Shown: in pieces, positions 3,347 through 55,206 of the stretch
How the letters are laid out: every line of letters starts with the position of its first letter
Position numbering within the stretch: position 1 is the stretch's first letter
Source of the DNA: Planctomycetota bacterium
GTDB taxonomy: Bacteria; Planctomycetota; PUPC01; JACPCR01
NCBI GenBank assembly: GCA_016179685.1
Contig: JACPCR010000064.1
Span: forward strand, 181,186-245,185
DNA: 64,000 bases
Direction of reading: 5' to 3'
Made by a program: the position numbers and the translations under genes
The notes under the pieces: model-generated
What the model saw: only the letters and a program-made list of their open reading frames with translations
Told to the model about the DNA's origin: nothing
Databases searched by the model: none

Positions 3347-3548
3347 AGTCTTCGGGTGTCACTTCCCCGCGCCCGCGCCCACTACGTGGTCACCCGGCGG
3401 AGAAGTTGAAAGGTGTCGGGTGTCGGGTGTCCGTTGATTCCTGAACCCTGAGCCTGACACCTTTTCCAGCCTTGTTGGATTGCGGGCTTCGTCCGCTTTA
3501 AGAATACTCTGCACGGGAGGATAGACGGCACTTCGGAGTCCATCGGCT

Positions 3549-3596
3549 CGTAGACGAGTTCGCAAGTACGGGTGCACTTGCGAGCGCGTCTGCTCG
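3549..3596. repeat. REP-like palindrome (degenerate copy), core AAGTAC-GGGT-GCACTT
   Basis: cgTAGACGAGTTCGCAAGTAC gggt GCACTTGCGAGCgcgtc; imperfect hairpin 70 bp upstream of PhyH gene. Confidence 0.7.
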
Positions 3597-3664
3597 GGTG
3601 TTGTGCAGCACGATCCCGGGCCGATGGACCCTCGTAAACCGGGCAAGAAAATAAGAGGTGGACC

Positions 3665-4492
3665 ATGCCGGATTCGACTCTCAAGGGCCAGCAGGTCGGG
3701 CTCACCGACGACCAGCTTCGTTTCTACAAGACCTTCGGCTACGTCGTCCTCCGGGGGTTCTTCACGCCGGAAGAGGTTCAGATCATCCAGCGTGAGGTCA
3801 GCCACGCCATGACCGTCCAGTACGCGCACAAGCCGTTCGACGGCACGGCCCGGCACTGGACCATGATGCTTGAAGAAGATACGCCGTTCTTTGCGAGCTT
3901 GATGGAGGACCCGCGTTTCCTCACGATCGCCAAGCATCTCTACGGCCAGGACGTGCTCGGCGTCGGGACCGATGCCAATCGCTACGTGGGCAACACCGGC
4001 TGGCATCGGGATACGGCCACCGTCCTGCAATACGGCGTGAAATTCGCCTTCTACCTCGATCCCGTGGACGCCTTGACCGGGGCCCTCCGGGTCGTCCCTT
4101 CCTCTCATCGATACCCCGACGATGAGGAATTCGGCAAGCTCATCCGCGGCTTCGCTGTGCAGGACGTGCCCGCCCAGGCGCTCCAGTCCGAGCCTGGCGA
4201 TGCCGTGGCCTTCGATCTGCGGACCTACCACGCCTCCTTTGGCGGAAGCCGGGACCGGCGGATGTGCACGGTGGTCTACTACGGCAATCCGCGTAACGCA
4301 GAGGAAGAGGAAAGCCTGCGCCGGCAAGGCGAAGGCAACGTCCGGGGCAGCTTTAAACAGTTCGGCTGCAAACGCCAGTACCTTTACCCGAGGACCTGGT
4401 ATCAGAATCCGAACCGGAGTCCCGATCGCCAGTGGTGGATCGACCGCCTCAAACAGATCGGATACTTCGACTGGCCGGGGGTGCTTCAGTAG
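3665..4492 (+). CDS. phytanoyl-CoA dioxygenase (PhyH) family Fe(II)/2-oxoglutarate oxygenase
   Basis: 275-aa ORF; GWHRD...D and HxSFGG-like motifs typical of PhyH family; paralogous to three other ORFs in window. Confidence 0.75.
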   Translation: MPDSTLKGQQVGLTDDQLRFYKTFGYVVLRGFFTPEEVQIIQREVSHAMTVQYAHKPFDGTARHWTMMLEEDTPFFASLMEDPRFLTIAKHLYGQDVLGVGTDANRYVGNTGWHRDTATVLQYGVKFAFYLDPVDALTGALRVVPSSHRYPDDEEFGKLIRGFAVQDVPAQALQSEPGDAVAFDLRTYHASFGGSRDRRMCTVVYYGNPRNAEEEESLRRQGEGNVRGSFKQFGCKRQYLYPRTWYQNPNRSPDRQWWIDRLKQIGYFDWPGVLQ

Positions 4493-4550
4493 GCCTTGCC
4501 GAAAACGTTTCCTGAGCGACGCCCATGGAGGGGCGGCGCGTGATTACGCA

Positions 4551-5381: not shown

Positions 5382-5494
5382 GTCACCCTCCGTCCAGCGC
5401 CTGCGAAAGAACTGAAAAATGGTGAAAATACCCGCCAGCCCGTGACGGTTCAGATTCGCAGGCCCGGACCGCACGGCTTTTTGAATTATCGCAC

Positions 5495-6811: not shown

Positions 6812-6866
6812 CAGGGTGCGAAATGGTGAGCGGGGGATTCCGCTCTGGCTTCGTGGTCAGCCTGTC

Positions 6867-6914
6867 CCCCGTACACGAAATTGGAAGTGCATGCGCACTT
6901 CCAATTTCGTGTAC
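6867..6914. repeat. REP-like palindrome, perfect 20-bp stem, core GGAAGTGC-ATGC-GCACTTCC
   Basis: ccGTACACGAAATTGGAAGTGC atgc GCACTTCCAATTTCGTGTACgg in intergenic DNA. Confidence 0.8.
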
Positions 6915-7027
6915 GGGACGGTTTGAGGCAGTGCTGTCACGACCGTTCAGATCCTGCCCCACGTATCCGGTGAGTGCGCCCCACCCACTTAGGTGATGCT
7001 CGACGTACCACCGGCAACAAGGCTTCG

Positions 7028-7429: not shown

Positions 7430-7494
7430 GGTCTTGATCCTCCTTTAAGAGTCGAACTCCGATTCCAAGGCGACGCCCATGAAGAGGCGGCGCG

Positions 7495-9378: not shown

Positions 9379-9405
9379 GGCCTGTTGATCCAGATAGGAA
9401 CCCGT

Positions 9406-11097: not shown

Positions 11098-11375
11098 GCT
11101 GGCATCCACGAGTTCAGGAGTGAGTCCATGCGTACGGAGGTGCACTCGACCTTGCGGACGCGTGGACCAGGAGTCTCCAAGGGTCAAAACCGTGATAAAT
11201 TAAACAAGTTTTTTCACTCACAGGGAGAGGGCTGTATCTCATTAGAACGTGCGGCTTTGCGAAGCAATGCCTTTTAGCGGAGCGCTTGCCGTATCTTGTT
11301 TCGGTTCTGGTCGTTCGCGCCACATTGTTCGGTTTGAGGCAACGCTTCGCTAACAGAATATGCCAAGCTCCAAAA

Positions 11376-13632: not shown

Positions 13633-13663
13633 CCCGTCGCGTGGGGCTTCCCTCCGTCCCCAC

Positions 13664-20585: not shown

Positions 20586-20637
20586 GCGAGTAGACGAGTT
20601 GGCAAGTGCACCAGCACTTGCCAACTCGTCTACTCGC
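20586..20637. repeat. REP-like palindrome, perfect, core CAAGTGC-ACCA-GCACTTG
   Basis: gcGAGTAGACGAGTTGGCAAGTGC acca GCACTTGCCAACTCGTCTACTCgc between two minus-strand genes. Confidence 0.85.
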
Positions 20638-21868: not shown

Positions 21869-21914
21869 CGTACACGAGCACGGAAGTGCGGGTGCATCTT
21901 CGCAGGCGTGTACG
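21869..21914. repeat. REP-like palindrome (imperfect), core GAAGTGC-GGGT-GCATCTTC
   Basis: cGTACACGAGCACGGAAGTGC gggt GCATCTTCGCAGGCGTGTACg. Confidence 0.65.
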
Positions 21915-22884: not shown

Positions 22885-22978
22885 CGAGTAGACGAGCTCG
22901 CAAGTGCACCCGCACTTGCGAGCTCGTCTACTCGTATTCCTGTTCAGAAGGGCGGGTGCACTTCTGAACAGGAATACG
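22885..22978. repeat. tandem pair of REP-like palindromes (BIME-like arrangement)
   Basis: cGAGTAGACGAGCTCGCAAGTGC accc GCACTTGCGAGCTCGTCTACTCg immediately followed by cgTATTCCTGTTCAGAAG ggcgggtgca CTTCTGAACAGGAATAcg. Confidence 0.85.
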
Positions 22979-22983
22979 AGTAT

Positions 22984-27742: not shown

Positions 27743-27981
27743 TCTTGTTGACGCGGACGACGCCATCTACTCCAAAAGGGAGGGAACGGTGTCAGGTTTC
27801 AGGAAGACACAGATATCTGATGTCTAGAAGGGAATGGACTTGAGTAGTTTAGCGCCGTGTCGGGAATCCCTACACATCCAGGAACTGGAATCGATGGCCA
27901 AGAGGCCAGCCGGTTCATTCTATCCGCCGTGTATGATTATTATTCATTTGTTCACAACAACTTATGGCTATATGTAGTGAT

Positions 27982-27997
27982 TGGCACGCTGTCTGCT
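27982..27997 (+). promoter_or_regulatory. candidate sigma-54 (-24/-12) promoter
   Basis: TGGCACGctgtCTGCT fits the GG-N10-GC spacing of the TGGCAC-N5-TTGC consensus with one mismatch in the -12 element; about 60 nt upstream of ATG 28059. Confidence 0.3.
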
Positions 27998-28058
27998 TTC
28001 TGTTCAAACCAGTCAATTGTCTATCCCACTGGAGAACACACGTTTAAGGAGTCATGCC

Positions 28059-29342: not shown

Positions 29343-29367
29343 GCTTCGCAGTCCCTTCGCCCCCCAG

Positions 29368-29398
29368 CAGGAGGCCATCGGCCTCCTGCTTTTTTTTT
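29368..29398 (+). terminator. rho-independent terminator
   Basis: GCAGGAGGCC atc GGCCTCCTGC hairpin followed by T9 run, immediately after stop of 28059..29342. Confidence 0.65.
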
Positions 29399-29544
29399 GC
29401 CTTGGTTACGTTTCTTTGCGGCTCAAATCCTTCTTGCCGAATCTCTCGAAGGTGAACATCCGTTTGCCGTATCATGGTGATGTAGGTCGTGCCGTGTCAG
29501 GACCAGGCCTTCGAGCCCAAGACCGGGAGTGCGAGTAAGAAGGG

Positions 29545-40691: not shown

Positions 40692-41048
40692 GAAATGGCA
40701 AAGCCAAGCAAGTTGACAGAAAGGCGTGAATCCTTATAAGGGAGTCTTATAGCTCCCGCAAATAACTGCTCTTGTGAGTGTTGGCCATAGAGGCCATAAA
40801 TCTGATATATTCTTACCTTAGATCACTTACGTGCCGATACCAGCGAGACCCGCCTGCGCCGCGGGCGCGGCAGGCAGGCGTTGGCATTTCCAGTTAGGTT
40901 TTTGCGGCTGCTCTTAGGTTGTCACTTCCCCGCGCCCGCCTCCCATAGTCCCAACGGGATCCCTCCCGCCGGGATAAGTTCGGCGGGCACCCGGCGGAGA
41001 TCTTTCACGGTCATGGAAGCGCTTTGCTTCCGCATCGGGAGTTGCAAT

Positions 41049-41444
41049 ATGGCTGACTCTGAAATTCTTCCCGAGGGGAAAGTAGCTTCATCGGGAAAAC
41101 ATGGGGAAGTCAAGTTTGACTACATCAAGAGCAATCATTTTCGGGTAATCTATGCTGACGGTGTCTGGGGTGGTCTAACTCCACGTCTCAAGATGCAGAT
41201 CACATTTTGGAATGAACGCCACCCCATCCCCAGGCAAATCGTTCAGGAACTCACGGAGAAAGAACAGCCGGGTAGAGAATTAAGGCGAGAATCCAGAGAG
41301 GCAATCGTTCGAGAACTCGAGGCTTCGGTCATCATGGACCTCGAGGTGGCCCGCTCTTTCTGCAAGTGGCTCACCGAAAAGATTGAGAAAGCTGACCAAC
41401 TCTTGGCCCAACACAAAGAATCAGAAAAAAAGGAGAATCGTTGA
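41049..41444 (+). CDS. hypothetical protein (island cassette gene 1)
   Basis: within ORF 40881..41444; ATG 41049 preceded by GGGAG; lower-GC region; C-terminal predicted helical/charged tail; no family recognised. Confidence 0.5.
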   Translation: MADSEILPEGKVASSGKHGEVKFDYIKSNHFRVIYADGVWGGLTPRLKMQITFWNERHPIPRQIVQELTEKEQPGRELRRESREAIVRELEASVIMDLEVARSFCKWLTEKIEKADQLLAQHKESEKKENR

Positions 41445-42040
41445 TGCCACCGGCGAGTGCAATGTCCGATGTTATTCGCGCAGGTTCTCACTGCACCAGC
41501 ACTCTTGACTTGAGAGTGCCCCTTCCAGGAGCCAGTCAACTAGAATATGCAGCGTGCTTCCGAAATCCTATTGCCCTGGGTGAAGAGATTCCTTCAGAAT
41601 CCCCATCGGATTGGCCTGTGCCGTTGGACGAGGCGACCGTGGATGCCCTGGGTGAACATAATCTTTCGGAGTTCCCATCGGATTTGACATTTTCCGAACC
41701 TTGCAGCGAGCGAGATCTGGAAGATTATCTCAGAAGTCTCGAAGATGAGGGGTTTATTCCCTCCTCGATGAGGAGGAGCGCTCTGAAACTGTGGAAAACT
41801 TTAGAGCATCTTTCAGGTCATTGTTTGACGATTCCGGGTGCTGCTCCAGGCCCTGACGGGAAGTTATTCCTCGTTTGGGGTGAGGGCGAGCACCACTTCG
41901 AGGCCGAGTTGATCCCTGACAACCCGATAGAGTTCTTCTACATGAACCGCGGAACCAACGAGACTTGGAGTGGAGAGGCTGCTGATGAGAATGAGGTATC
42001 CCACGAAATCGTAGAGAAGCTGATGTCTCTTTGGGGGTAG
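41444..42040 (+). CDS. hypothetical protein (island cassette gene 2)
   Basis: ATG 41444 overlaps upstream stop (TGATG), AAGGAG 9 nt upstream; acidic protein; no family recognised. Confidence 0.5.
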   Translation: MPPASAMSDVIRAGSHCTSTLDLRVPLPGASQLEYAACFRNPIALGEEIPSESPSDWPVPLDEATVDALGEHNLSEFPSDLTFSEPCSERDLEDYLRSLEDEGFIPSSMRRSALKLWKTLEHLSGHCLTIPGAAPGPDGKLFLVWGEGEHHFEAELIPDNPIEFFYMNRGTNETWSGEAADENEVSHEIVEKLMSLWG

Positions 42041-42044
42041 CCTC

Positions 42045-42533
42045 ATGCCCGCAGTGAAGCGAGGGGTGGAGGGCGAGCCCTTACCCGGCGAGGAAGTCGT
42101 TTTCCGTCTCTGGCGGAAAGGAAAGGATGGCACGCGCGATGAATTGGTGGCCGCTTTTGAGTTGTCAAGCGATGAGAGGCGGTCACTACGCCCCACGTTG
42201 TCAGTTTTTGCTGAGGGGCTCACTTCCCATGAACAGGCATTCGAAATTACTGGGAAGAATTCGTTGAAGCGACTCGTGCTCCGAATGCAGGTCTGCGAAA
42301 TTCGGAAGATCGACTTGGTGCCTCCTGACCTGAATTTTCGTGGTCTCGATGTCATCTGGGTCCAAGCCAAACTGCAGGAGAATGGCCGAGAAGTCCCGGA
42401 CGAAAGACCGGGTGCTGAAGGTCATGCTGGAATTTTGGGACTCAGTAGCCCTCCAAACAAGAACTCTAGAAAAGTACTTCGAGTGAAACTTGCCGAATTA
42501 GCCTACCACAACGATCCCTTTGACAAACGTTGA
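42045..42533 (+). CDS. hypothetical protein (island cassette gene 3)
   Basis: 162-aa ORF 5 nt after previous stop; no family recognised. Confidence 0.5.
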   Translation: MPAVKRGVEGEPLPGEEVVFRLWRKGKDGTRDELVAAFELSSDERRSLRPTLSVFAEGLTSHEQAFEITGKNSLKRLVLRMQVCEIRKIDLVPPDLNFRGLDVIWVQAKLQENGREVPDERPGAEGHAGILGLSSPPNKNSRKVLRVKLAELAYHNDPFDKR

Positions 42534-42638
42534 CGGCGAGTGCAGGTACCCGGCAATCACGTCCGATGAGTCCCATCCTCTGATCGAATACCCGCACCGA
42601 GAATCCAGTCAGGTTCTGCAGATAGCGCAGCTTCTTGT

Positions 42639-44681
42639 TTACTCCAGAATAAGCGATTTCGTCAGAAGCTTCTCGATGTAGGTGGCCTTGTCTTCCTTCT
42701 GGAAAAGCACATGGTGCTTCTCGAAGGAGGCCTTGTTCGTCCCGCCCTCCCACCAAGTGACTTCCTCCCGGCGGGTACTTGAAAGGATGAAGGAATTCAG
42801 GATGACGGCTGGATCGCCTATCCGGCCCTCCAACTCTTTGATCGTGGCGTGGAAACGAATCTTCGGGTCGTTCTTGCCCTCAAGATTCCGGATGCCTTTG
42901 GGATCAATGAAGGTGATGTGCTGGCGGCTGCCCGATAGAAGCCAGAGGATGAAATCCGGGTAGAAGTTCCCCGCCTCGAAGAACCCGATACCCCGGCCCC
43001 GGCTCTGGTTGCGTAACAGGTAGAGTTCCTTCTCCTTGAAGAAGCCCTTGTTGCTGTCGAAGAAGGAGCGCAGGTCGAGGACGAATTCCCTTTCGCCTTC
43101 GTTCAGGGAAACCGGTCGGACCTCGATGTTGTCGCCCTTGAGGTAGAGGAGAGGGCGGTAGAGGTGCTGGCCGAAGCAGATGCCGCGAAACCGGTCGTGC
43201 TCGATGTCCCGCCATTCGCCCCGCTCCACGGCCTGCTTCAGTTCCTTGAGCTTGGCGATGATTTCCTTCTCGGATTCGTCAATCAGAATGCGGTATTCTT
43301 CGATGAAGTTGGGGTCGTCCGGGCGCAGTTCCCGATACTCTAGGTGTGGATTCTCATACTCCGCCTTCCGGTAATAGTAGTAACGCTCGCAGTATTTCTT
43401 CAGCAGGGCGATCGCCACCTCTTCCCATGCCCGAACCCTGCCGAAGCGGGTCAGGCTTAGCTCCGTTTCGGGAATGTAGAGCGTATACCAGTCCGACCGA
43501 GCCAGCAGACTTCGCACCTGCTCCCTGGACAGGCTGAGGTTATGCCAGGCCTTCTCGCTCTTGAAGTGCTCAAGCTCGAAGAACACGCGGTCGAAATCCA
43601 TGAAAGCCAACTGGACGTCCCGCAGCTTCCCTTCGTGCTGTTCGGCAGCGCCCTGACTCGTTCCCGCGCCGCGGCTGATGTGCGCTTGGACTCTCGGATA
43701 CCAGTCCAGGACGACCGGATACCTGACCAGATGTTCCGGCGGCACGTCGAGCGCCGGCTTGGGTCCGTCCCGCTTGAAATCAATGCCGTCTTTCAGCTTG
43801 AGAGTCTTGAGCTTCGTCTGGCCGAGGTTCTTCAGGACGGGCAGGACAAACTCCATCCGATCTTCGTTGGACGGCAGCCCCTCCTCTTCGAGGTATTCCT
43901 TGAACTGCCGCATGTAATCGGCCCGGATGCCGAAGATGTGAATGTCGATGATTTCCACGGATTTCCCGGCGAACAGCCCACGCCCGTCCTTCGAGAACAT
44001 TTCCGCCTGAAGCCCGGACAGCCCGAATTCCTCCAGGTGTTGCCTCGATAGCCCTTCGTTGGGAGTCAGGAGAATGATGCGATTGAGGTTGCGTTCCTTG
44101 CCGTGCTGGGCCAGGTAGTGTCGATACTGAAGCAGGTTGACGTGCATGAGCAGCGTCTTGCCCGACCCAGTGGCGCTCCAGAAGGCCAGCTTATTGAGCT
44201 GCTCCGGCTCGTAGGGCTGAATCTTGTCCCCCTCTGTTTTGTCCTCGTTGAAGCGCCTGACGAACGCGTTCAGGTCATTGAGCAGGGTATCCGGATTCTG
44301 GAAGTAACGGTCGAGGTAAATCTCCGTGAACAGCAGCGAGAGGTATTGGAAATACTTCGGGTAGAGGTTGTTGGCCTGGTGGCGCTTCTCGGTGATGACT
44401 CGCCAGTGGCGGACAATGTTTTGGTCGTATTGGAGAAGCAGGTCCGAGGGAAGCTGCTTGCGCTGGAATAGGCGGGCTTTGAGGACGTGGTGATAATGGC
44501 TGACGCCTTCGCCGTCGAACCCCTCCAGGTTTGGGCTTTTCAGCTCCTCGGCGAGCTGGCCAATGCGTTCGACCTCGAACAGGTCGAGCCTCCACTGGGC
44601 GAGGACGAGGCGCTCGTCGAATTTGAGGCGGGTCTCGCGGCGGGTTGGGCCGGCTCTCCTTCGGGCGGTTCCTGAAGGCAT
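42639..44681 (-). CDS. restriction-endonuclease-like P-loop NTPase (Res-like: helicase-type ATPase with C-terminal PD-(D/E)xK-like motif)
   Basis: 680-aa ORF; Walker A FWSATGSGKT; degenerate motif II-like IIDIH (no DExH); C-terminal YPDFILW...TFIDPKG fits PD...(D/E)xK nuclease pattern; last gene of the mod-containing minus-strand array. Confidence 0.55.
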   Translation of the reverse strand: MPSGTARRRAGPTRRETRLKFDERLVLAQWRLDLFEVERIGQLAEELKSPNLEGFDGEGVSHYHHVLKARLFQRKQLPSDLLLQYDQNIVRHWRVITEKRHQANNLYPKYFQYLSLLFTEIYLDRYFQNPDTLLNDLNAFVRRFNEDKTEGDKIQPYEPEQLNKLAFWSATGSGKTLLMHVNLLQYRHYLAQHGKERNLNRIILLTPNEGLSRQHLEEFGLSGLQAEMFSKDGRGLFAGKSVEIIDIHIFGIRADYMRQFKEYLEEEGLPSNEDRMEFVLPVLKNLGQTKLKTLKLKDGIDFKRDGPKPALDVPPEHLVRYPVVLDWYPRVQAHISRGAGTSQGAAEQHEGKLRDVQLAFMDFDRVFFELEHFKSEKAWHNLSLSREQVRSLLARSDWYTLYIPETELSLTRFGRVRAWEEVAIALLKKYCERYYYYRKAEYENPHLEYRELRPDDPNFIEEYRILIDESEKEIIAKLKELKQAVERGEWRDIEHDRFRGICFGQHLYRPLLYLKGDNIEVRPVSLNEGEREFVLDLRSFFDSNKGFFKEKELYLLRNQSRGRGIGFFEAGNFYPDFILWLLSGSRQHITFIDPKGIRNLEGKNDPKIRFHATIKELEGRIGDPAVILNSFILSSTRREEVTWWEGGTNKASFEKHHVLFQKEDKATYIEKLLTKSLILE

Positions 44682-44687
44682 CGGTGG

Positions 44688-45013
44688 CTAAGGTGATGGA
44701 AGAGGAATTTCAACATACTGGCCGGGTTTCACGGTCTTCAGTGTTTGCTCGATGACGGACAGAAGGCCGGCCACCATCGGAACCTGGTTGCTGGGAAGAA
44801 CCACCACTGCGAGCTTTATTGCGGCAAGGTTCTGCTGATAGCGTAAGTTCTTGTCCGTGGTCATGAAGACGTCAAACTCGTTCTCCGCTCGCCTGAGCAA
44901 TTCGCCGTTCTTCAGCCCGCTCCACAAACCATTTCCTGAACGGTTCGGATTGCCAGATCGGGAAGTCGCGTCTTCACCAGCCGCGGCACGCACTCATCAA
45001 GTAAGATTCTCAA
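44688..45013 (-). pseudogene. DUF5615-like (PIN-like) toxin-type gene, apparently frameshifted
   Basis: N-terminal ILLDECVPRLVKTRL (DUF5615-like) is read in one frame from TTG ~45013, the remainder (...WSGLKNGELLRRAENEFDVFMTTD...) in ORF 44688..44993; frames differ by 1 nt near 44930. Confidence 0.4.
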
Positions 45014-45255
45014 TTCGACCTACCCAGGCGCAGAAGGGTGGCTTTGGAGAATTCAAGGACTTGTAACGCCTGCTCTCGAGTCACGGAAGGGAAGTTCTCC
45101 AGAAATTCTTCCAGGGTCAGGCCCGCCTCGAGGTTGTCAATGAGGGCTTGCACCGGGACCCGCGTCCCCCGGAAAACGGGCGCTCCGCTGACGATTTCGG
45201 GATCGATGGTTATCGGCAACTGCTCAAGCTCTGCCTCTTCAATGACCAGTGACAT
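45010..45255 (-). CDS. DUF433 family protein (antitoxin-like partner of DUF5615)
   Basis: ORF 45010..45297; start at ATG 45255 with GAAGGAGG upstream; GAPVFRGTRVPVQALIDNLEAG matches DUF433 pattern from memory. Confidence 0.6.
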   Translation of the reverse strand: MSLVIEEAELEQLPITIDPEIVSGAPVFRGTRVPVQALIDNLEAGLTLEEFLENFPSVTREQALQVLEFSKATLLRLGRSN

Positions 45256-45318
45256 CGTGGGCCTCCTTCGTGAGGGTCGGGAATCGACGAGAGCCATTTT
45301 ACTCCAGATTGCCTTCCC

Positions 45319-48300
45319 CTACACGTCCTTCACGTCGAACATCAGCCGCTGGAATTCCTCCTCAATTAGCCGGACTTTCCAGGTCATGTCCTCACGGCGC
45401 AGGTTTTCCAGGTGGTTGTCGCCGTTCACGTAAATCAGGTCGAACTCCTGGTCCCGGGTGTTGTACTTCTGCTTCCGGAAAAACTCGTCCAGGTCCTCGT
45501 TCGACTTCCCTGCCTTCCCGTCGGGAGCAGACAGGTCCTTCAAGCTCCGCCAGATGACCAAAACCTTCTCGCCCTGGGGATTCGTGCCTTGGACGACCCG
45601 GAAGCCCCGGATAACGTCCACGTGCATTACCCGGAGGCCCAGCAGGTAGTTGAAGGTCTCGACCAGGTCCACGGTTGTGGGCCGAGTCTCGCCCGCGCTG
45701 CCGGTGGCGATGTTGAGCTTGTAGAAGAAGGGGTCTTCGAACGCGGCGATGTTCAGCAGCGACGCGCTGCCGCGGCTCTCCACGTCCAGCATATAGGAGA
45801 GGAGGTAGTCCTCCCGGACTCCGTCGTTGGCTTCCAGGAGGGCGGCCTGCAAGTCGGTGCGTTTCAGTTCCAGGTTGTTGAGGGTGTCTTCGTAGGATTT
45901 CAGCCGGAGGTATTTGAAGAGGTGGCTGGAGCCTTCGCGGCTAACCGGCTTGCCGTCTTTCCAGTCCTTGGAGTAGATGACCTTCTGGATGCGTGGCTTG
46001 AGGACGGTATTGAAGTATTCGGCCATCTCGACGAGGATATACTTGCGGCCCCCCCCGGGTCTCGCGCGTCATCGCGATTCAGGTTGATGACGGCATGGCC
46101 CGTGGTGCCGGAACCGGCGAAGAAGTCCAAGACCAAGGAGTCCTCCGCGTCCGAGCAAATAAGCACGCAATCCTTGACAGCGTGTAGGGATTTGGGGAAG
46201 TCGAATGGACTCAGCGGACCAAACATTTCCTTCAATTCTTTCGTTCCATTGTCCCGAGCAGAATAGGCCGGGCTATCCCACCACGTGCGAGGCAGCGACC
46301 CTTCTTCGCGTAAGTACTTCCGTTTGTAAACCTCGTACTTGCCATCTCGCTTCATCACCTTCATTAGACAGACCTCTGCGATCGCCCTTTGAACGCCGAA
46401 GTTCCAGACCTTTTCAACGCCTGAATCGTCAATGGGCCAAATAGCGACTTCGCCGGGACGGGTTTTCTCGTTGATCCTCCAACTTTTACTGGTTTCTAGC
46501 CATTCCATCCCGGGGATCCGCTGTGCGTGATGCGCCTCGTCGAAGTAGATCGGAAAGAATTGCTTCGGTCGGTCTGGTCTGTCCGATCCCCTGCTGCTCT
46601 TCCTGAAGTTCTCCCATTCGAACGGTTTTCCCTCCTCATCTACTTGGTCGTACCTTTGTCGCTGAGAGTCACTGTGAGGCAACCGACCAACTTCGGAAGA
46701 CTGTGCAAGTTTCGAGTAGAACAGCGCGTACTCGTGGTTAATGGCGAACCCCTTCGTCGTAGCGCGACCGGACGGGTTGTTGCGAATCACAACGGTCGCC
46801 ATGTAGTTCTCATCAAAGAAAACACGATCTAACACAGACCTCAGGCGGTGGGATTCGTAGTCATCTATCGTCACGCACAGCAGCCCGTCGCAAGACAGGA
46901 CTTCACGTGAGAGTGCAACTCTATCTTCGACGAGGGAAATCCAAGTCGAGTGCTTGTACTCGTTCTTATACAGAATCTCGCTCTCTATCGCGTTATAAGG
47001 TGGATCGATGTAGATACACTTAATCTGTTCCCTATAGCGTGTTTCTATTAGGTTGAGCGCCTGGAAGTTCTCCCCGTGCACCAGCAGCCCGTCGGTATTC
47101 TCGTCCAGGTCCTGGATGCTGGCCAGCAGGCGGTCTTTGAACTCCGGGTCGAAGAAACGGGTGTCCAACACCAGGAAGGGATTAGCCTTCAGGAACTCCA
47201 CAGTGAGCGGCTTGGAATATTTCGGGGTGTGCAGGTCGCCCTGGATTTCGTCAATGGCGAAGAGGCGGACCCATTCCTCCCGCTGGGCGTCGCTGGCCGC
47301 GATTTCTACGTATAGCTCCCCAGGGACGCGGTCGAGCGTGATGCAGTAGTTCGTCTCGACCACGAACTTCTTCTTGAGCCAGAGCTTCTTCTGGAAGTTC
47401 TCCAGTTGCTCCAGGAAGGCGATGATCTTGTGGGCGATGCGGCGGAGCGCACGGATTTTGCCGAGATACTGCTCCACGCGGGGCGCGGACTCGCTTTCGA
47501 TGTCGTCCAGGTGCATGACCTCGTTCTTGATGTAGAAGTCCAGCTCCCGGCGGAGGAAGCCGCCCAGGTCCTTGTGGATGAAGTAGTCGAAGGTGTTGCG
47601 GGCGGTGTAGTCCGTGAGGTGCTTTTCGAGAAGGGTGCGGTCGGGATTCTTTTCGGTGGGGGCGGGGGTGGAGAGTTCCTCAATCCATTCTTTCGCATTG
47701 GCGGCTTGTAGTGCCCTCTTTAGAGGGTTGCCTTCGTCTGCACTACCCGCATCGAAGAGACCCGCTGTCCCAGCGGGATCCCTATGGGAAAGCGGCACTA
47801 CGAACCCGGAAGCGATGGCGGCGTTGTGATCCGACTGTTTCCGTTTCTGCGGGTCCGGCTGGTAGAGGAAGTGGATGAATAGCTCGTCAGGCTTTATGTC
47901 CACGGGATTCGATTCGCAGAGCATGAACCGGCGCTCCTTGTCGGGCCCGGCTTTCTGGTTGTCCTTCTCGGTGTCGGCTTCGACGAGCTTGAAGTGGACG
48001 CGGCGGCCGGAGGGGAGCTTGAAGGTGTAGTCCCGGAAGTATTCGGACGACTTGACGTAATACTGGTCGTGATTGGCCCAGTGGAGCTTGACCTCCTCGC
48101 CTTCGTAGGGGATGGCATAGACGCCTTCCTTGTAGCGGCGGAGGGAAAGGAAGTCGCCCTCGTGGTAGTAGCGGCGGAAGAAGTTGGTGAGGTCGGAGAA
48201 GATTTCCTGTTCGAGGGCGGCGGGGTCGCCGGCGGACTGGTATTTGGCCTTGAGTTCCTTGACCTTCGGGCTGGTTTCCGGGTCGATGCCAAGTCCTTTG

Positions 48301-48527
48301 GCCTGTTCGATGGCTTCCTTGAGTTGGGACTCGATGACGCGCTGGTCGCCGGACTGGTGTTCGCTTAGGGCATTGCGGACTTGCGGGAGGAGGTCTTTGT
48401 CGAGGAAGCGGGTAATCTCGTCCCGCTTCTGGTTCATGATGCGGTAGATGCCGAAATCGAGGTCGGCCTGGTCGAGCTGGAAGAGCTCGGCGAGCAACCG
48501 CCTCAACTTCTCGAGGTTTTGAGACAT
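45319..48527 (-). CDS. beta-class (N6_N4_Mtase-type) DNA methyltransferase, type III Mod-like, with ~500-aa N-terminal extension; reading frame interrupted at a C8/G8 tract
   Basis: ORF 45900..48527 contains motif IV IYIDPPYN and, ~300 aa later, motif I LDFFAGSGTTGHA (order IV then I = beta class); C-terminus continues in ORF 45319..46026 if the G8 run at 46049-46056 is read as G9 (...NLNRDDARDPGGGRKYILVEMAEYF...). Confidence 0.7.
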
Positions 48528-48546
48528 TGCGACAAACCCTCTGCGT

Positions 48547-49650
48547 CTATTCGTTGTGCTCGAGGAGCACGAATTTCCGTTTCAGGCCGTTCAAACAGTC
48601 GTGGCGGAGATGCCCCTCGTGCTGAAGCCGCCCGACGACGATACCGGGAGCGATACCGAGTTGACGGGCGAAGGCCGAAATGTCCTTCTCGCTTCGGTAC
48701 TTGCCCGTGGTTACCAGCTCGTCGTACTTGGCTTGCGGGATCAGCATCTTCACCGCGAAACGGTCCGCCTCCGTTTCCTCCATGCTCTTCGGCTTCTCCT
48801 TGTCGTCGACGAAGGCGGCCCTCTTGCCGTGCAAGAGTATGTGGCCTGCCTCGTGGAAGAAGCTGAACCAGAAATGGTCGTCGCTCTTATGCCGAAGGCT
48901 GAGCATCAGGAGGGCCTTGTCCTTGCTCAGCCAGCGTGTCGCGCCGCTGAGGTGCGTGCCCGGCAACTCCGCTACGAAGACGACGGCTACGCCGGCGTCG
49001 CAACAGAGGGCCTTCATCTTCGGCTCGAAGATGGCAGGCTCCGCGTTGGTGACCGACTGAATCTCCCGTAGCGCCGCGAGGAACCGTTCTTTGTCGTAGC
49101 GCGAGCAGACAACTTCCCGCGCCCACAGCTCCCCGATCCGTAGCCACGCCGTCAGGGACTCGGGAGCGCTCTTGAATGCAGGGGAATGCCTATAGGCTAC
49201 GTTGAGACCGGCGTAGGCTTCTTGCCAGGCCTCCACGCTTCCCACACCGAAGAAAGCAAGAAGGGAGGCAACGAGCTCGGCTGGGTCATCGGTTTTGGGA
49301 ATCAACCGGCGTTCAGCAAGCTCCTTGATGGGGAACTTCCTTGCCCACGCTTCCTGGCCCTCAAGCGCGGACCGGTCGGCAGCCTTGGCCGCGTGGAGCC
49401 GGAACAGACCATCCAGGTTGTTCCAGACCGCAGCGGACACGCCAAGGACCCTCTCCAGTTGGATGGCAGTCTCCGACGTGACGTTAGCCTTTCCAGTGAT
49501 GATTTGGCTAACCGTCTTCTCGCTCAGACCGCACCGTTGGGCCAGGTCCGTCCCCTTCATGCCCTTCGCTTCCAGGGTCTCCTTCAAGATCTCTCCCGGG
49601 TGAACGGCGTAGTCGGGATGGAATTCGTTCCTATCCGTGCTAAGTGTCAT
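48547..49650 (-). CDS. HigA-like HTH (XRE family) antitoxin domain fused to ImmA/IrrE-family metallopeptidase domain
   Basis: 367-aa ORF; N-terminal HPGEILKE...LSEKTVSQIITGKANVT HTH; C-terminal FFHEAGHILLH HExxH zinc-peptidase motif (COG2856-like). Confidence 0.7.
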   Translation of the reverse strand: MTLSTDRNEFHPDYAVHPGEILKETLEAKGMKGTDLAQRCGLSEKTVSQIITGKANVTSETAIQLERVLGVSAAVWNNLDGLFRLHAAKAADRSALEGQEAWARKFPIKELAERRLIPKTDDPAELVASLLAFFGVGSVEAWQEAYAGLNVAYRHSPAFKSAPESLTAWLRIGELWAREVVCSRYDKERFLAALREIQSVTNAEPAIFEPKMKALCCDAGVAVVFVAELPGTHLSGATRWLSKDKALLMLSLRHKSDDHFWFSFFHEAGHILLHGKRAAFVDDKEKPKSMEETEADRFAVKMLIPQAKYDELVTTGKYRSEKDISAFARQLGIAPGIVVGRLQHEGHLRHDCLNGLKRKFVLLEHNE

Positions 49651-49985
49651 CGGTGGTAGTCCTCCAGGCTCAGGATGCGGATAGTGGTGATCCGGGTAAG
49701 GTCGATGCCCCCGTCAGGTTTGAGCGGCAGGTCGGCCTCAGCGGGCCCAAAAACGAGACGGAAGGGATGTTTGAGGTCAACGGCGAACTGCCCCTTCCTG
49801 TTCCCCGTCAACTCGTGTCGGCGCGTGGGCGGCACGTGGGGGACCTCGGCGAGTGTCGGGGCAGCTCGAAGGAAGGCCATGCGCTTCATGATAACCTTCC
49901 CGTTCTCTGCGCCGTACTCGCGGCATAGTGCCTTCTCGGAATTGAAGGTCTTAGCCATCTTGTCGTTCCCGAACAGGATGTTCAT
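49647..49985 (-). CDS. HigB-like (RelE/ParE superfamily) toxin
   Basis: 112-aa ORF overlapping downstream gene by 4 nt; resembles plasmid-maintenance-system-killer/HigB toxins (KALCREYG...LTGNRKGQFAVDL...FRLVF). Confidence 0.6.
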   Translation of the reverse strand: MNILFGNDKMAKTFNSEKALCREYGAENGKVIMKRMAFLRAAPTLAEVPHVPPTRRHELTGNRKGQFAVDLKHPFRLVFGPAEADLPLKPDGGIDLTRITTIRILSLEDYHR

Positions 49986-50050
49986 CCCCGCCTCATTATA
50001 ATCAGTTTACCTAAAAGGTAAAGCTTTTTCTCGCGTTCGCACCAGGAGTC

Positions 50051-51543
50051 TCAGGTGACCGACCATCGGATGGTGAAGAGATGCTCCACAGTTGTTCGCT
50101 GGGTCATTCGCTTTTCGAGCGCGGCGATGAGCGTGTCCCGCTTCGCCAGAATCTCATCTTCGAGGTCGAAAATCTTCTGCCGCTGTTTCCGCTGCTTCTG
50201 CTCCAGGTCCCGGATTTGGACCTACAACTGATGCTGCTCTTCAGTGGTGGCAGACATCCGGGCCTGCCGGTTCAGCGCCCGGATCTGCGCTTTGGTGTCC
50301 GCCAACTCCTTTTCCGCGGCCAGAACTTTATCCTCCGCCCATTTCTCCAGCCGTTCCCGCTCCTCCTGGAGGAAGCGGTTGTTCATCTCAAGGGAGCGGC
50401 TGATGGTGGCTTTGACGTGCCGCTGGGCTTCCTTGCCGAGCCGGTCTTTTATTTCCTGCGGCTGGCTTTCCAAAGGGGAAGCCTTGCCATTGCAAAGGAA
50501 AAGCTTCTCGCAGGTTTCCTGGTTCACGGGCCGGGCGGAATCGTCCAGCGCGGAGAAGAGGAGGTATTCCTCCCGGTCGAAGGATTCGATGACGAGCCGC
50601 TGAAGCACGAGCCAGCCGGAGTTGCCTTTGAGGGCCTCCACTACGGAAAGCCGGGTGGGATGGCTGGTGATATCGAAGGCGACTTCCGCGAGCGGGGTCG
50701 GGCAGGAGCGGCCTTCGCTGAGCGCGTGCTGGCCGAGCGGATGGGAGAGGCGATAGAGGAACTCGCCGGAAACGTTCTGCTGGGACTTGGAGATGAGGTG
50801 GTATCGGCCGGGCCGGACGCCATCGCAAGGGGCGGCGTGAAGGTCGAAGTGAAGCGCCTGGTCGTCAAAGCTGGCCGCGTTCCGCAGGATAAACTTGGTC
50901 AGCGCCCAGAAGAGCTTGCCGAAGCGGTCGAGCTGCTCGCGGGCGCTGTCGAGCTGCACTCTCAGGCGGGCGTGGACCTCTTCATCGAAGTGTTCGAGGA
51001 GGATGCGGCGGGTCTCGTCGATCCGGGACTTGATGGAGGATTCGAGTTCGGCGCGGAGCTGCTGGAACGCGGCTTCGATCTCGCCGGGCGTCCGGCACTG
51101 CTGATAGATGGCGAGGATGCGCTTTTCAAAGTCCACGCCGGATTCGATGGTGCCGAGGACTTCGTCCGACGCGCCGAAGACGCCCGTGAAGAGGTTGAAC
51201 TTATCCTGGAGTTCGAGCGACCACTGCTTGCGGATGGATGCCGGGCAGATGACAAGGAGTCGGCGGCGCTGCTCTGTCCAATGCTGTGGCACAGGACAAG
51301 CCCCGCCTCGATGGTCTTGCCCAAGCCGACCTCATCCGCCAGGATGACGCCTTTGGAGATGGGTGAGCGGAGGGCAAAGAGCGCGGCGTCAATCTGGTGG
51401 GGGTTGAGGTCCACGCAGGCGTCGAACAAGGACCGGGAGATGCGGTCCACTCCGGTTGTCGGCCCCTGGCGGGTCAGTTCGTAGGCATAGTAGCGGGCGT
51501 GGTAGGGAGTGCTCACGACCGGGCCAATCTCCGGGGCTATCAA
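50051..51543 (-). pseudogene. SNF2-family helicase remnant (frameshift, in-frame TAG, helicase core apparently missing)
   Basis: N-terminus in ORF 50962..51543 has SNF2 motif I (ILADEVGLGKTIEAG); continuation LVICPASIRKQW is in a different frame (ORF 50222..51292); reading continues in frame through TAG at 50222-50224 for 56 more codons; no DExH or motif VI seen. Confidence 0.5.
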
Positions 51544-52350: not shown

Positions 52351-52491
52351 GCCCCAAGAAGCAGCAGGAGGATTGCCAAGCTCCAATGCCTGCCTAGCCC
52401 GACAGCGCTGGATTTTGGCGAAAGTCGTTGGAGTGAGCGCTTGAACTTCTAGATTTCGCCTCCCTGCCATGGGGGCAGGTTCGGGAGAGGT

Positions 52492-52521
52492 CTCAGAAGT
52501 GCGGGTGCACTTTCGAGCTCG
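52492..52521. repeat. REP-like palindrome (short, imperfect), core GAAGTGC-GGGT-GCACTTT
   Basis: CTCAGAAGTGC gggt GCACTTTCGAGCTCG ~100 bp upstream of E1 gene. Confidence 0.6.
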
Positions 52522-52620
52522 TGCCCAGCACGACTTTCGCTCCCTGGCGCATTCTGCTAAGATTTGGAATAGGGGCACGCGATCGGAATCCCGAAATGGA
52601 GACTCCCTGAACCCTGCGCC

Positions 52621-54993
52621 ATGGTCCTTCAGATCGATAGCTTGCCCGTCGCCGAGCCCGGACACCTGACGTTCCGGCCCATTCCGGTCTTCCAGAATTC
52701 CTTGTCGCTCGAGCAGGCGCTCGAACGGAATCTGCTGACGCCGGCCCGCGCCCTCGAGCTGCTCGAGCAGATGCGGACTGTCCGGGCATTCGAGGAGATG
52801 ATTCTGACGTTGCGTGCGGGCGCGTACGAGCCCCTGAAGGGCTACGAGTACCGGGGTCCGACGCATCTTTCGATCGGGCAGGAGGCGACATCGGTGGGGG
52901 GCTGCGCGGCCATCGGGCCGGAGGACTACATCACCAGCACGCACCGGGGCCACGGCGACGGCATCGCCAAGGGCTTCAGCGCCATCACGGCCATGCCGGA
53001 CGAGGGTCTGCGGGCGCGGCTCGGGCTGGGGAATGCGAGTGCGGCGACTCGGCCGGAGCTGCTGGATCGGGCGCTCGAGGATCATCTCTTCCGGACGATA
53101 GCGGAGCTGTTCGGCAAGGAGGCGGGCTACTGTCGGGGCCGGGGCGGCGGCATGCACATCGCCGATTTCAGCGTGAACCATCTCGGCGCGAACGCCATCG
53201 TCGGCGGCAGCACCGGCATCGCCGCGGGGGCGGGCATCAGCAGCCGATACCGCCGGTCCGGCCAGGTGGCCCTCGCCTTCGTGGGCGATGGGGCCTATAG
53301 CAACGGCATCACGCTCGAGTCGATGAACCTCGCCAGCATGGCCCAGTTCTCGAATCCGAAGCTGACGGACCATCCCTTCGGAGTCCCCACGGTCTTCCTA
53401 ATCATCAACAACCAATATGCCATGACCGGGCAGCAGCAGGGCGAGATCAGCGGGGTGGACTACCTGGCCCGCCGAGCCGCGGGATTCGATCTCGACGGGC
53501 TGCACGCCGAGGTGATCAATGGGATGGATGTCCTGGCCGTGTTCGACAGCATTCGCCGGGCGGCCCAGCTTTGCCGAGAGGGTCATGGTCCCGTCGTCCG
53601 CGAGCTGGTGACTTACCGCTACTACGGCCATTCGCTGAGCGACCAGGGCTCGGAATATCGCCGGAAGGAAGAGGAGAAGGCATGGAAGGAGATCGATCCG
53701 ATTCCGGCCCTGGAGAAGCAGATTCTGCGGCTGGGCCTGGCGACGGAGGAAGGGTTGGCGGCGTTGCGTGCCCGCGTGCAGGCGCGGCAGGACCGCGCGG
53801 CGGTCCGCGCGGCGGAAGCGCCGGAGCCGGACGTGCGTGAGTTGACGCGCTACGTCTTCACGGAACGGCGTGAGGCGCACGTGCCCGAGCCGTTCCGCCA
53901 GGTGAAGACGCTGTCGCCCGCCGTGCGCTCCAAGCGCGACAAGGACGGCCAGATCACCTTCAAGGAGGCGGTCCGGGAGGCGCTCATGGAGGAGATGCTC
54001 CGGGACCGCCGAGTCCTCTTCTACGGCGAAGACGTCGCCGATTACGGCGGCGCATTCAAGGTCACCAAGGGCCTCCTCGAGATATTCGGCCGGGACCGCG
54101 TCTTCAATACCTCCATCTCCGAGGCCGGGATCGTGGGGACCGGCGTCGGCTGCGCCATGACGGGGCTGCGGCCCGTCGTCGAGCTCATGTATTCCGACTT
54201 CGAGTTCCAGGCGAGTGACCAAATCCACAACCAGGCCGCCAAGTGGAGCTACATGTCCGGCGGGCAGACCTCCGTTCCGCTGGTGATCCGGACCTCGCAG
54301 GGCGCGGGCAAGGGCTACGGGGGCCAGCACTCCCAGGCGCTCGAATCGCATTCCACCCATACGCCGGGCCTGAAGGTCGTCGTTCCCTCCACACCCTACG
54401 ACGCCAAGGGACTGCTCAAGACGGCCATCCGAGACGGCAACCCGGTCCTCTACGTCGAGAACCAGAGCCTCTACAACCTGAAGGGGCAGGTGCCGGAGGA
54501 GGAATACCTTGTCCCGTTCGGCGAAGCCCGCGTTCTGCGCCGCGGCCAGCACGCGACGATCGTGGCCTGGTCGCTCCTCGTGCACGAGGCCATCAAGGCC
54601 GCGGACGAGTTGGCCCGGGAATTCGAGATCAAGGTGGAGGTGATCGATCCGCGGACGCTTTGCCCGCTCGACCTCGACACCATCGTCGAATCCGTGCGAA
54701 AGACCGGGCGACTCCTGGTGGTTTCCCAGGCCTGCCGGACGGGCAGCTTTACGGGCGAGATCGCCGCCCGCGTCCAGGAAGCGGCATTCGATGACCTGGA
54801 TGCCCCGATCGCGCGCCTCGGCTCGGCTGACGGGATATCGCCCCAATCTCACGTTCTCGAAAAGGCCTACCTGCCGAACGCGACGTCCATCGTCGCCGCG
54901 GTCCGGGCGCTGACTCAAGGCCTCTCGGTGGGACAGGCACGGTCCGGCGAGCGCACAGAGCGGCTACAGGTTCACCGCTCGGCTGACACTTGA
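52621..54993 (+). CDS. thiamine-diphosphate-dependent 2-oxoacid dehydrogenase E1 component, fused alpha and beta subunits
   Basis: 790-aa ORF; N-terminal half has E1-alpha TPP-binding region (GDGAYSNG ... YRYYGHS); C-terminal half has E1-beta features (transketolase-like pyrimidine-binding and C-terminal domains). Confidence 0.8.
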   Translation: MVLQIDSLPVAEPGHLTFRPIPVFQNSLSLEQALERNLLTPARALELLEQMRTVRAFEEMILTLRAGAYEPLKGYEYRGPTHLSIGQEATSVGGCAAIGPEDYITSTHRGHGDGIAKGFSAITAMPDEGLRARLGLGNASAATRPELLDRALEDHLFRTIAELFGKEAGYCRGRGGGMHIADFSVNHLGANAIVGGSTGIAAGAGISSRYRRSGQVALAFVGDGAYSNGITLESMNLASMAQFSNPKLTDHPFGVPTVFLIINNQYAMTGQQQGEISGVDYLARRAAGFDLDGLHAEVINGMDVLAVFDSIRRAAQLCREGHGPVVRELVTYRYYGHSLSDQGSEYRRKEEEKAWKEIDPIPALEKQILRLGLATEEGLAALRARVQARQDRAAVRAAEAPEPDVRELTRYVFTERREAHVPEPFRQVKTLSPAVRSKRDKDGQITFKEAVREALMEEMLRDRRVLFYGEDVADYGGAFKVTKGLLEIFGRDRVFNTSISEAGIVGTGVGCAMTGLRPVVELMYSDFEFQASDQIHNQAAKWSYMSGGQTSVPLVIRTSQGAGKGYGGQHSQALESHSTHTPGLKVVVPSTPYDAKGLLKTAIRDGNPVLYVENQSLYNLKGQVPEEEYLVPFGEARVLRRGQHATIVAWSLLVHEAIKAADELAREFEIKVEVIDPRTLCPLDLDTIVESVRKTGRLLVVSQACRTGSFTGEIAARVQEAAFDDLDAPIARLGSADGISPQSHVLEKAYLPNATSIVAAVRALTQGLSVGQARSGERTERLQVHRSADT

Positions 54994-55206
54994 CGCGCCG
55001 TCTCTCCTTGGACGTCGCTTCTCCCGTAGGGACCTGCGGAGGACATGAGGGGGTGCGGTGGCCTCCAGCCCCGGCATCCCCGGCACCTCCCATTTCCGTC
55101 GCTGACCGGGGCGGCGCGACAAGACAGGAAAAATCCACAAAGCGAAGAAATTTCGCCGTAAGAATTTGGTGAAAAGAATGATGATTTGAGCCCTGTAGGG
55201 GCGCAA

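Follow-up and report, generated by a model that had tools for sequence, protein, structure and literature searches.

Shared blocks at three intergenic loci

The 64,000-nucleotide stretch of DNA from an uncultured planctomycete analysed here (the window) harbours three related elements, c1, c2 and c3, all of which are intergenic, on the + strand and between + strand genes, and which lie within 37.6 kb, separated by gaps of 7 kb and 30 kb with normal genes. The first, c1 (3348..3414, 67 nt), begins 2 nt past the TAG (3344-3346) that terminates a URO-D-like gene, and a PhyH gene follows it; GGTGTC repeats adjoin this copy only. The 5' arm of c2 (33944..34062, 119 nt) overlaps the TGA (33947-33949) with which a creatininase-family gene ends, and a caspase-FGE gene follows, i.e. 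two of the three copies start 0-4 nt from the upstream stop codon. The third, c3 (40911..41011, 101 nt), is located between mraY and an unknown gene, 220 nt downstream of the mraY stop (40691) and 38 nt upstream of an ATG at 41049. Since the three flanking gene pairs are functionally unrelated, a riboswitch or gene-specific leader was rejected, and the arrangement is typical of dispersed repeats rather than of a gene-specific regulator.

Element c3 also sits where a low-GC defence island (41-51 kb) begins on its left side, exactly at the point where the GC content falls from ~0.62-0.69 to 0.50-0.55. The island carries a type III R-M system, TA-like genes and a DrmD fragment. The interval 3358-40921 consists of ordinary metabolic genes of native composition. 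No genes for a transposase, RAYT or integrase/recombinase were found by Pfam among about 50 ORFs of the window. For a 725-aa gene, the best non-self homologues were ~50 % identical; those of the URO-D-like gene came from several phyla and reached at most 76 %.

The first-pass annotation had described six short blocks recurring in otherwise unrelated intergenic regions as fragments of one larger dispersed element, and all six are present close to where it had placed them, except that block C, put at about 33961 and 40932, lies 45-75 nt away. Four of them link the three loci, i.e. block A (TGTCACTTCCCCGCGCCCGC; 3357-3376 and 40920-40939, 20/20 identical), block B (CCTCCCAWAGTCCCAACG; 33962-33979 and 40939-40956, 17/18 identical), block C (AGTTCGGCGGG; 34035-34045 and 40977-40987) and block D (CACCCGGCGGAGA; 3391-3403 and 40988-41000). 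The other two lie outside the element family: block E (CCCCACGTATCC; 6957 and 33981) is a 12-mer whose partner at 6957..6968 (+) is an isolated match to the 5' arm of the c2 central hairpin, and block F (CTCCCGTAGGG) is an 11-mer shared by 34142-34152, outside c2, and 55021..55031 (+).

Significance was judged against the ~12.3 kb of non-coding DNA in the window with dinucleotide-type shuffles. This DNA contains 52 shared 11-mers (20.9 from shuffles), 23 shared 12-mers (5.9 from shuffles) and two shared runs of at least 16 nt, of which the shuffles yield none. Ungapped or low-gap local alignment gave a score of 46 for c1 and c3 (26/28 identical) and 37 for c2 and c3 (25/27), against a null of 18.7 +/- 2.1 with a maximum of 28 in the same test, while the chained scores reached 61.2 (null 31.3 +/- 5.2) and 54.2 (null 34.6 +/- 6.1), respectively. 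Blocks C and D, each taken alone, are not significant, but they count despite their shortness because they are collinear with B and A. Block E, in contrast, does not extend by a single base beyond its 12 nt, and gapped alignment adds only about 1 score unit to block F; with ~6 such 12-mers and ~21 such 11-mers expected by chance, both were dropped as parts of the element. That GC-rich, low-complexity intergenic DNA produced the matches by chance, which the first-pass annotation had named as a refuting outcome, therefore holds for E and F and is refuted for A-D, where a 20-mer and a 17/18-mer are each accompanied by a collinear second block and exceed the null maximum; that every shared block arose in this way is hardly credible. 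In practice, this leaves four genuine blocks out of six, and the other two should be abandoned.

Blocks A-D assemble into the composite, full-length copy c3, in the order A, B, a variable 20-nt hairpin (40957-40976), C and D. Compared with this copy, c1 contains the outer shell only, i.e. A, extended to 3349-3376, and D (26/28 and 13/13 nt) around a 14-nt mini-hairpin, CCAC-UAC-GUGG, whereas c2 contains the inner module only, i.e. B, lengthened to 33953-33979, and C (25/27 and 11/11 nt), which enclose a perfect-stem hairpin of 55 nt (33980-34034), with outer arms of differing sequence (CCCUG/CGGGG). A global alignment of c1 to c3 fits an internal deletion of ~35-40 nt that keeps 'CCCA..TA.GT..GG' remnants. 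Each of c1 and c2 has the appearance of a partial or variant copy, the former through internal deletion and the latter as an inner module with an expanded central hairpin. Direct comparison of c1 with c2 revealed no significant similarity, so the family is modular or mosaic, and the proposed decay of one single element, although c1 and c2 do resemble parts of c3, is no better supported than two modules that are nested in c3. Only three loci were seen in 70.8 kb of the genome, with each module present only twice.

Folding potential and searches for further copies

As RNA, c3 is predicted to fold into nested helices (UUCCCCG/CGG.GGAG, GCCCGCC/GGCGGGC, GUCCC/GGGAU and CGGGA/UCCCG) with an MFE of -39.7 kcal/mol (z = -2.7 against dinucleotide and z = -3.8 against mononucleotide shuffles). 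A nested-helix fold is common to c3 and c2 (MFE -48.8 kcal/mol, z = -3.9), while c1 does not fold better than its shuffles (z = -0.15). The structural comparison of c2 and c3 was anchored on the blocks because MAFFT had misplaced block C. In helix P3, the B segment GUCC/GUCCC has a different 3' partner in the two copies (GGAC versus GGGAU), and their apical hairpins are both perfect and of unrelated sequence. The outer stem of c3 is weakened without compensation, and no compensatory double substitutions are available across the copies, since the paired blocks are nearly invariant. The minus strand of the elements folds at least equally well.

The ncRNA-like nature suggested for the blocks found no counterpart in Rfam 15, which gave no match in the whole window at the gathering threshold and only matches of at most 20 bits (E >=0.3) in permissive scans of the three loci. 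No terminator-like site was detected at any of them either: a U-tract is absent and the 25 nt downstream of the elements are not T-rich, while a canonical U-tract terminator is present elsewhere in the window (29366-29399), which argues against a simple terminator and led us to reject intrinsic (Rho-independent) termination. Likewise, a sigma-70, sigma-54 or ECF promoter within block A was discarded, as the hexamer spacing is not acceptable, and so was a small ORF or coding remnant, since minus-strand ORFs that stop at the TGA within the reverse complement of A overlap real genes and are spurious.

Profile searches (nhmmer) with four sub-blocks in 70.8 kb of the genome found no additional copy; a weak D-like match at 49582-49605 (E = 0.12) falls within a coding region. 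There was also no true match in GTDB species-representative genomes, metagenomes, viral contigs or plasmids. A scan of the genome collection with AGTCCCAACG...AGTTCGGCGGG returned 19 matches, none in a CCCAWAGT context, in agreement with a back-of-envelope expectation of ~17 chance matches for a 21-base pattern. In metagenomes, the B...C pattern gave no match and the block A 19-mer gave 20, none of which was followed by D, and scans of viral contigs and BLAST against plasmids returned nothing. De Bruijn (Logan) contigs pass unbroken through all three copies, which argues against a young, homogeneous high-copy family, and none of these contigs, which come from five sequencing runs, differs from the window (100 % identity), i.e. 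neither strain polymorphism nor empty sites were found.

Nature and origin of the elements

With moderate confidence, we interpret blocks A-D as marks of a small family of intergenic repeats that are lineage-specific, modular and imperfectly palindromic, of the class to which ERIC/IRU, Correia/NEMIS, BOX and BIME belong; they look like an ordinary lineage-specific intergenic repeat rather than a new kind of system, and the block identity and collinearity, well above chance, support this assignment. The unit would be a nested hairpin, consisting of an outer stem (A/D), an inner stem (A tail/C), a conserved unpaired segment (UCCCAWAGUCCCAACG) and a variable apical hairpin. Copies, presumably dispersed over the genome, would diverge as their interior is partly deleted, expanded or replaced, with the basal blocks staying nearly identical. 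Given the sense orientation between co-directional genes and the two starts 0-4 nt from a stop codon, co-transcription with the flanking genes is most likely for all three copies, which would then form stable stem-loops in the mRNA, either in a 3'-UTR or between cistrons. Their predicted effect is protection from 3' exonucleases or the provision of a processing site, not intrinsic termination. Several further repeat families, GTAG-tagged REP-like palindromes among them, occur in these intergenic regions as well, which points to a genome with a propensity for such elements.

A possible, though unlikely, alternative is that the three loci are the entire 'family', i.e. non-functional remnants of local duplication or gene conversion in which parts of a GC-rich hairpin region of ~100 nt would have reached two other intergenic sites, for example through template switching at hairpins. 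The confinement of the partial and mosaic copies to 37.6 kb, their unbroken contigs and the lack of more copies in 70.8 kb or in any public collection searched point in this direction, but the copies occupy three independent intergenic sites in one orientation, with ordinary genes between them and flanks that are not duplicated, and they show sharp block boundaries and a replaced interior instead of contiguous partial copies, in a genome that hosts several other dispersed intergenic repeat families. We consider it clearly unlikely that the elements form a structured functional RNA family, either as a cis-acting UTR element or as a small RNA, whose core would consist of the basal helices and the unpaired UCCCAWAGUCCCAACG, a potential binding site for protein or RNA. 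Such RNAs usually combine a conserved core with variable apical helices, as seen here, and P3 forms in both c2 and c3 with different 3' partners; moreover, the folds of c2 and c3 have z values of about -2 to -4, all three copies are in sense orientation, and a sigma-70-like site at 40782-40811 would place c3 in a 5' leader. However, the same orientation in 3/3 copies has a p of ~0.25, the whole core is missing from c1, and the weakening of the c3 outer stem is not compensated. Also against it are the unrelated neighbouring genes, an inconsistent placement (c1 and c2 directly follow a stop codon, c3 precedes a start codon by 38 nt), the failure of Rfam to match even at a permissive threshold and the lack of a homologue outside this MAG in the collections searched.

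It is tempting to speculate that c3 is a true nested insertion of B...C into the loop of A...D, or that the UCCCAWAGUCCCAACG core represents a new lineage-specific structured RNA, but we regard this pair of ideas as improbable. As a nested insertion, the inner B...C would be a small mobile hairpin element, present 'solo' as c2, and the outer A...D shell a hairpin repeat, 'empty' as c1, whose loop would be specifically targeted; if true, this would reveal, in Planctomycetes, a mobile element not described before that targets hairpin loops and relies on a transposase in trans. It is even more doubtful that the blocks are recombination or attachment sites, be it attL/attR of an island, an integron attC-like site or an insertion hot-spot hairpin, with c3 as the junction of the 41-51 kb island. 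Exact 20-nt direct repeats do occur 37.5 kb apart, and c3 coincides exactly with the GC drop at the island edge, but attL/attR of a 37.5-kb island was rejected because its interior would consist of metabolic genes and an integrase is absent throughout the window, and so was an island-end repeat, as no counterpart turned up at the right junction (49.9-50.3 kb; score 19, the null level). Integron attC sites are 57-141 nt long, combine R'' (RYYYAAC) with R' (GTTRRRY) and occur with cassette arrays and/or IntI. The ...CCCAAC of block B and GTTCGG... of block C loosely resemble these halves, but TCCCAAC and GTTCGGC both depart from the consensus in a single position. Moreover, the distance spanned from R'' to R' in c3 is ~37 nt, short of the minimum of ~57 nt expected of attC, and a cassette array is missing.

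Relation to known repeat classes

ERIC/IRU of enterobacteria and Correia/NEMIS of Neisseria are small intergenic repeats of ~70-150 nt that form imperfect palindromes and do not code for protein. They reside in transcribed intergenic regions beside unrelated genes, are co-transcribed with them, form long stem-loops in the mRNA, occur in size variants due to internal deletions or insertions at defined positions, and number tens to hundreds of copies per genome. The lineage-specific repeats proposed here share the length range, imperfect palindromy, intergenic location and internal indel variants, whereas only three copies were seen, all in this MAG, and the defined terminal inverted repeats and TA target duplication of Correia were not found. 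The likeness is thus one of functional class, without homology or sequence similarity. The BIMEs of Escherichia coli and the pneumococcal boxA-boxB-boxC repeats are mosaics of short conserved motifs in varying subsets. The present elements are similarly modular, with subsets that differ by locus (the outer shell in c1, the inner module in c2, both in c3), but their modules are nested within a hairpin, while BIME and BOX are linear, and they contain neither a REP unit nor a tandem boxB-like repetition.

The MITE-like character proposed in the first-pass annotation was not supported. MITEs have terminal inverted repeats flanked by target-site duplications and occur in many dispersed copies alongside a cognate autonomous IS. 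The elements are small, non-coding, intergenic and able to form hairpins, as MITEs are, but their inverted termini amount to an imperfect outer stem only (in c1, GTCACTTCCCCGCG / CGGCGGAGAAGTTGA), no shared direct repeat that could be a target-site duplication flanks c1, c2 and c3, and no transposase or parent IS was found in the window.

GTAG- or CGTC-tagged REPs are palindromes of 20-40 bp that bear the tetranucleotide tag at one end, are mobilised by RAYT transposases, are extragenic and mostly downstream of coding regions, and have been reported in Planctomycetes (Di Nocera et al. 2013, PMC3733652). Although GTAG REP-like palindromes share intergenic regions with our elements, the latter are longer (67, 119 and 101 nt) and have nested helices. 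As for the tags, c3 contains none of GTAG, CTAC, CGTC and GACG, the sole occurrence in c1 is a CTAC inside the loop, and the occurrences in c2 are scattered and non-terminal. A RAYT, i.e. an IS200/IS605-like Y1 transposase, had no Pfam match among the window ORFs.

Although bacteria commonly carry small intergenic palindromic repeats, those of Planctomycetes are almost uncharacterised, and this modular, nested example extends the catalogue; on present evidence, it neither opens nor resolves a larger question. Should many copies exist, they might be of use for strain typing or for studies of mRNA-end stabilisation in the phylum. Several other repeat families in the window are at least as well supported, among them the ATTGAAATTCCGAGA motif, a repeat of ~115 nt and the GTAG REP-like palindromes.

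Shared blocks and their assembly

All six short blocks (A–F) listed in the first-pass annotation as shared between intergenic regions were located in the window sequence, i.e. A (TGTCACTTCCCCGCGCCCGC) at 3357 and 40920 (20/20 identical), B (CCTCCCAWAGTCCCAACG) at 33962 and 40939, C (AGTTCGGCGGG) at 34035 and 40977, D (CACCCGGCGGAGA) at 3391 and 40988, E (CCCCACGTATCC) at 6957 and 33981, and F (CTCCCGTAGGG) at 34142 and 55021; the approximate coordinates reported for block C lay 45-75 nt away from its true sites. Chance was assessed with shuffled controls of ~12.3 kb of non-coding sequence, counting k-mers shared between different intergenic stretches. This gave 52 shared 11-mers vs ~21 in shuffles, 23 12-mers vs ~6, and two runs of >=16 nt vs none. 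Since shuffles yield so many of them, isolated 11- and 12-mers are uninformative. Block E showed zero bases of extension beyond its match and gapped extension of block F added only ~1 score unit; both are chance-level matches.

Judged by sequence alignment, blocks A and B are real repeats. Positions 3349-3376 matched 40912-40939 at 26/28 (score 46) and 33953-33979 matched 40930-40956 at 25/27 (score 37), while the null averaged 18.7 +/- 2.1 and peaked at 28, which makes pure chance an extremely improbable source of blocks A–D. Although short, C is collinear with B and D with A, and the chained scores were 61.2 vs 31.3 +/- 5.2 for c1-c3 and 54.2 vs 34.6 +/- 6.1 for c2-c3, c1 to c3 being the three loci with these blocks. 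Four of the six reported blocks (A, B, C and D) are thus real, and E and F are not.

In c3 (40911-41011, + strand), block A, block B, a 20-nt hairpin, block C and block D lie contiguously and in this order within one ~100-nt element. In c1 (3348-3414, +), A and D enclose a 14-nt mini-hairpin, and in c2 (33944-34062, +), B, together with the final ~9 nt of A, and C enclose a perfect 55-nt hairpin unrelated to that of c3, the outer arms also being of different sequence. The similarity of c1 to c2 was not significant (chained score 38.5 vs 35.6 +/- 6.1), leaving c3 as their sole link. The single larger element first proposed is therefore partly supported: A–D assemble in c3, E and F are not part of it, and c1 and c2 are not supported as direct relatives. 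Global alignment of c1 to c3 is consistent with an internal ~35-40-nt deletion that left small remnants; alternatively, the interior may have been replaced, or a B...C module nested in an A...D hairpin.

Genomic setting and predicted folds

Each of the three copies is a + strand element flanked by + strand genes, and these have unrelated functions: URO-D-like/PhyH for c1, creatininase-family/caspase-FGE-sulfatase for c2, and mraY/an unknown 131-aa protein for c3. c1 starts 2 nt past a TAG stop codon, the outer arm of c2 overlaps a TGA stop codon, and c3 follows the mraY stop codon by 220 nt and precedes the next ATG by 38 nt. MAGs labelled Latescibacterota, Gemmatimonadetes, Armatimonadetes, Lentisphaerae, Kiritimatiellae and others encode homologues of the URO-D-family protein upstream of c1 (2225-3346), most of them 69-75 % identical to it and the closest 76 %, which points to a highly conserved or often transferred gene.

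c3 sits exactly at a GC drop (about 0.62-0.69 to 0.50-0.55) that forms the left edge of a ~10-kb, low-GC (0.50-0.59) defence island directly downstream of mraY (41049-51292). The island contains three unknown genes, a type III R-M Res (42639-44681) and Mod (45900-48527), a PD-Lambda-2_B/ImmA-like HTH-M78 protein (48547-49650), a TA-like toxin (49647-49985), a DISARM DrmD-like helicase fragment (50222-51292) and a DUF433 gene. The C-terminal portion of the Mod profile is matched by a separate ORF (45319-46026), which could mean a split or frameshifted mod.

The predicted + strand folds consist of nested helices, with an outer stem (c1 ACUUC.CCGC/GCGG.GAAGU; c3 UUCCCCG/CGG.GGAG; c2 CCCUG/CGGGG), an inner stem (c3 GCCCGCC/GGCGGGC; c2 GCCC..CC/GG.GGGU), an unpaired UCCCAWA segment, the B-segment helix P3 (c3 GUCCC/GGGAU; c2 GUCC/GGAC) and a variable apical hairpin. 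Relative to mononucleotide shuffles, the folds had z-scores of about -3.8 for c3, about -3.9 for c2 and -0.15 for c1; against dinucleotide shuffles, c3 reached -2.7 and c2 -2.1. Extra G.U pairs let the G-rich minus strand fold no less well, and the near-invariance of the paired blocks leaves no compensatory changes to draw on. Directly 3' of c1 is a further hairpin (3408-3461; AAAGGTGTC...GACACCTTT around three GGTGTCG heptads), and directly 3' of c2 (34071-34203) a perfect 15-nt inverted repeat (GGCTGAAGGCTGAAG/CTTCAGCCTTCAGCC) enclosing a loop of ~100 nt; the secondary-structure potential of both intergenic regions is unusually high.

Identity and relatives of the A–D element

With about even confidence, we regard the A–D element as a lineage-specific, modular, imperfectly palindromic intergenic repeat, functionally classed with ERIC, Correia, BOX or BIME elements. 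Such a repeat would probably be co-transcribed with its neighbouring genes and form a stable stem-loop in UTRs. It lacks the target-site duplication that defines MITEs, so the MITE-like label is not supported, and it departs in size and tag from the GTAG/CGTC REPs (PMC3733652). The tested defining features of an integron attC site were likewise not found. Neither a sigma-70-like promoter nor a U-tract terminator occurs inside c1, c2 or c3, and an intrinsic terminator was rejected for want of the U-tract; the textbook example at 29366-29399 (stem + T9) indicates that such signals are in use in this genome.

That the copies are remnants of local duplication seems unlikely. A structured functional RNA is somewhat less likely still: Rfam, the covariance-model check of the ncRNA-like claim, recognised no family, with zero matches at gathering thresholds in the whole window and only noise in permissive scans of the three loci. 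We consider it improbable that the element is a recombination or attachment site connected with the defence island; the position of c3 at the island's edge speaks for this, but the island encodes no integrase or recombinase, and at its right junction no equivalent of the element occurs. An attL/attR pair formed by the two A repeats is unsupported because the intervening 37.5 kb encodes ordinary metabolic genes.

Profiles of four sub-blocks (nhmmer) detected no further copy in 70.8 kb, comprising the window, 6.4 kb on its upstream side and 0.4 kb on its downstream side. In species-representative genomes, a 21-base gapped B...C pattern gave 19 matches, close to a back-of-envelope chance estimate, none (0/19) with the adjoining CCCAWAGT context; the window's own copies were missing, indicating that the collection does not include this MAG. 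In metagenomes, B...C had no match and the A 19-mer had 20 unrelated ones, none followed by D; viral contigs and plasmids yielded nothing. The protein database contained no close relatives of the organism, the best non-self matches being about 50 % and at most 76 % identical, the second set coming from several phyla. Five runs of one study yielded Logan assemblies that were 100 % identical to the window. De Bruijn contigs run unbroken through c1, c2 and c3, which speaks weakly against a young, homogeneous high-copy family.

Other repeats in the window

Near-perfect palindromes of 45-55 nt (GAGTAGACGAGTTCGCAAGTGC-N4-GCACTTGCGAACTCGTCTACTC, with GTAG/CTAC at the ends) lie mostly downstream of genes, at 3550-3596, 6868-6917, 20586-20637, 21870-21913, 22885-22934, 22929-22982, 36560-36585, 52492-52522 and 55220-55267. 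These palindromes, presumably the first set of the first-pass annotation, match what Di Nocera et al. 2013 (PMC3733652) define as GTAG-tagged REPs; no RAYT gene was found in the window. A third shared intergenic motif with ATTGAAATTCCGAGA forms a 27-nt inverted pair at 93 % identity (34237-34263 and 37469-37495, inverted) with a third site at 13/15 (38572-38586). Logan contigs from >=3 samples begin or stop exactly at 37470-37497, which suggests a multi-copy sequence or a graph branch point.

A ~115-nt dispersed repeat (77 % identity; 11265-11375, +, and 32930-33045, -) is oriented alike with respect to the flanking genes at its two sites and has a partial copy at 6919-6937, where its CGGTTTGAGGCA core recurs. 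It has no Rfam match and is at least as strong a candidate as the A–D element. Motif GCGACGCCCATGAAGAGGCGGCGCGTCAA occurs at a gene end in all three of its sites (4516-4540, 7470-7494 and, inverted, 54990-55018; 83-92 % identity).

In 29366-30017, ~600 nt of low-GC non-coding DNA come after the terminator. Two exact copies of a 28-nt direct repeat (29544-29571 and 29605-29632) flank a palindromic spacer of 33 nt there, and a third, degenerate copy lies near 29779. This layout resembles CRISPR, but with just two exact repeats, protein-binding sites or an ncRNA locus are more likely. The ORF at 27981-29342 (453 aa, no Pfam hit) carries internal 96-nt and 378-nt tandem repeats (75-89 % identity) and probably encodes a repeat-domain surface protein.
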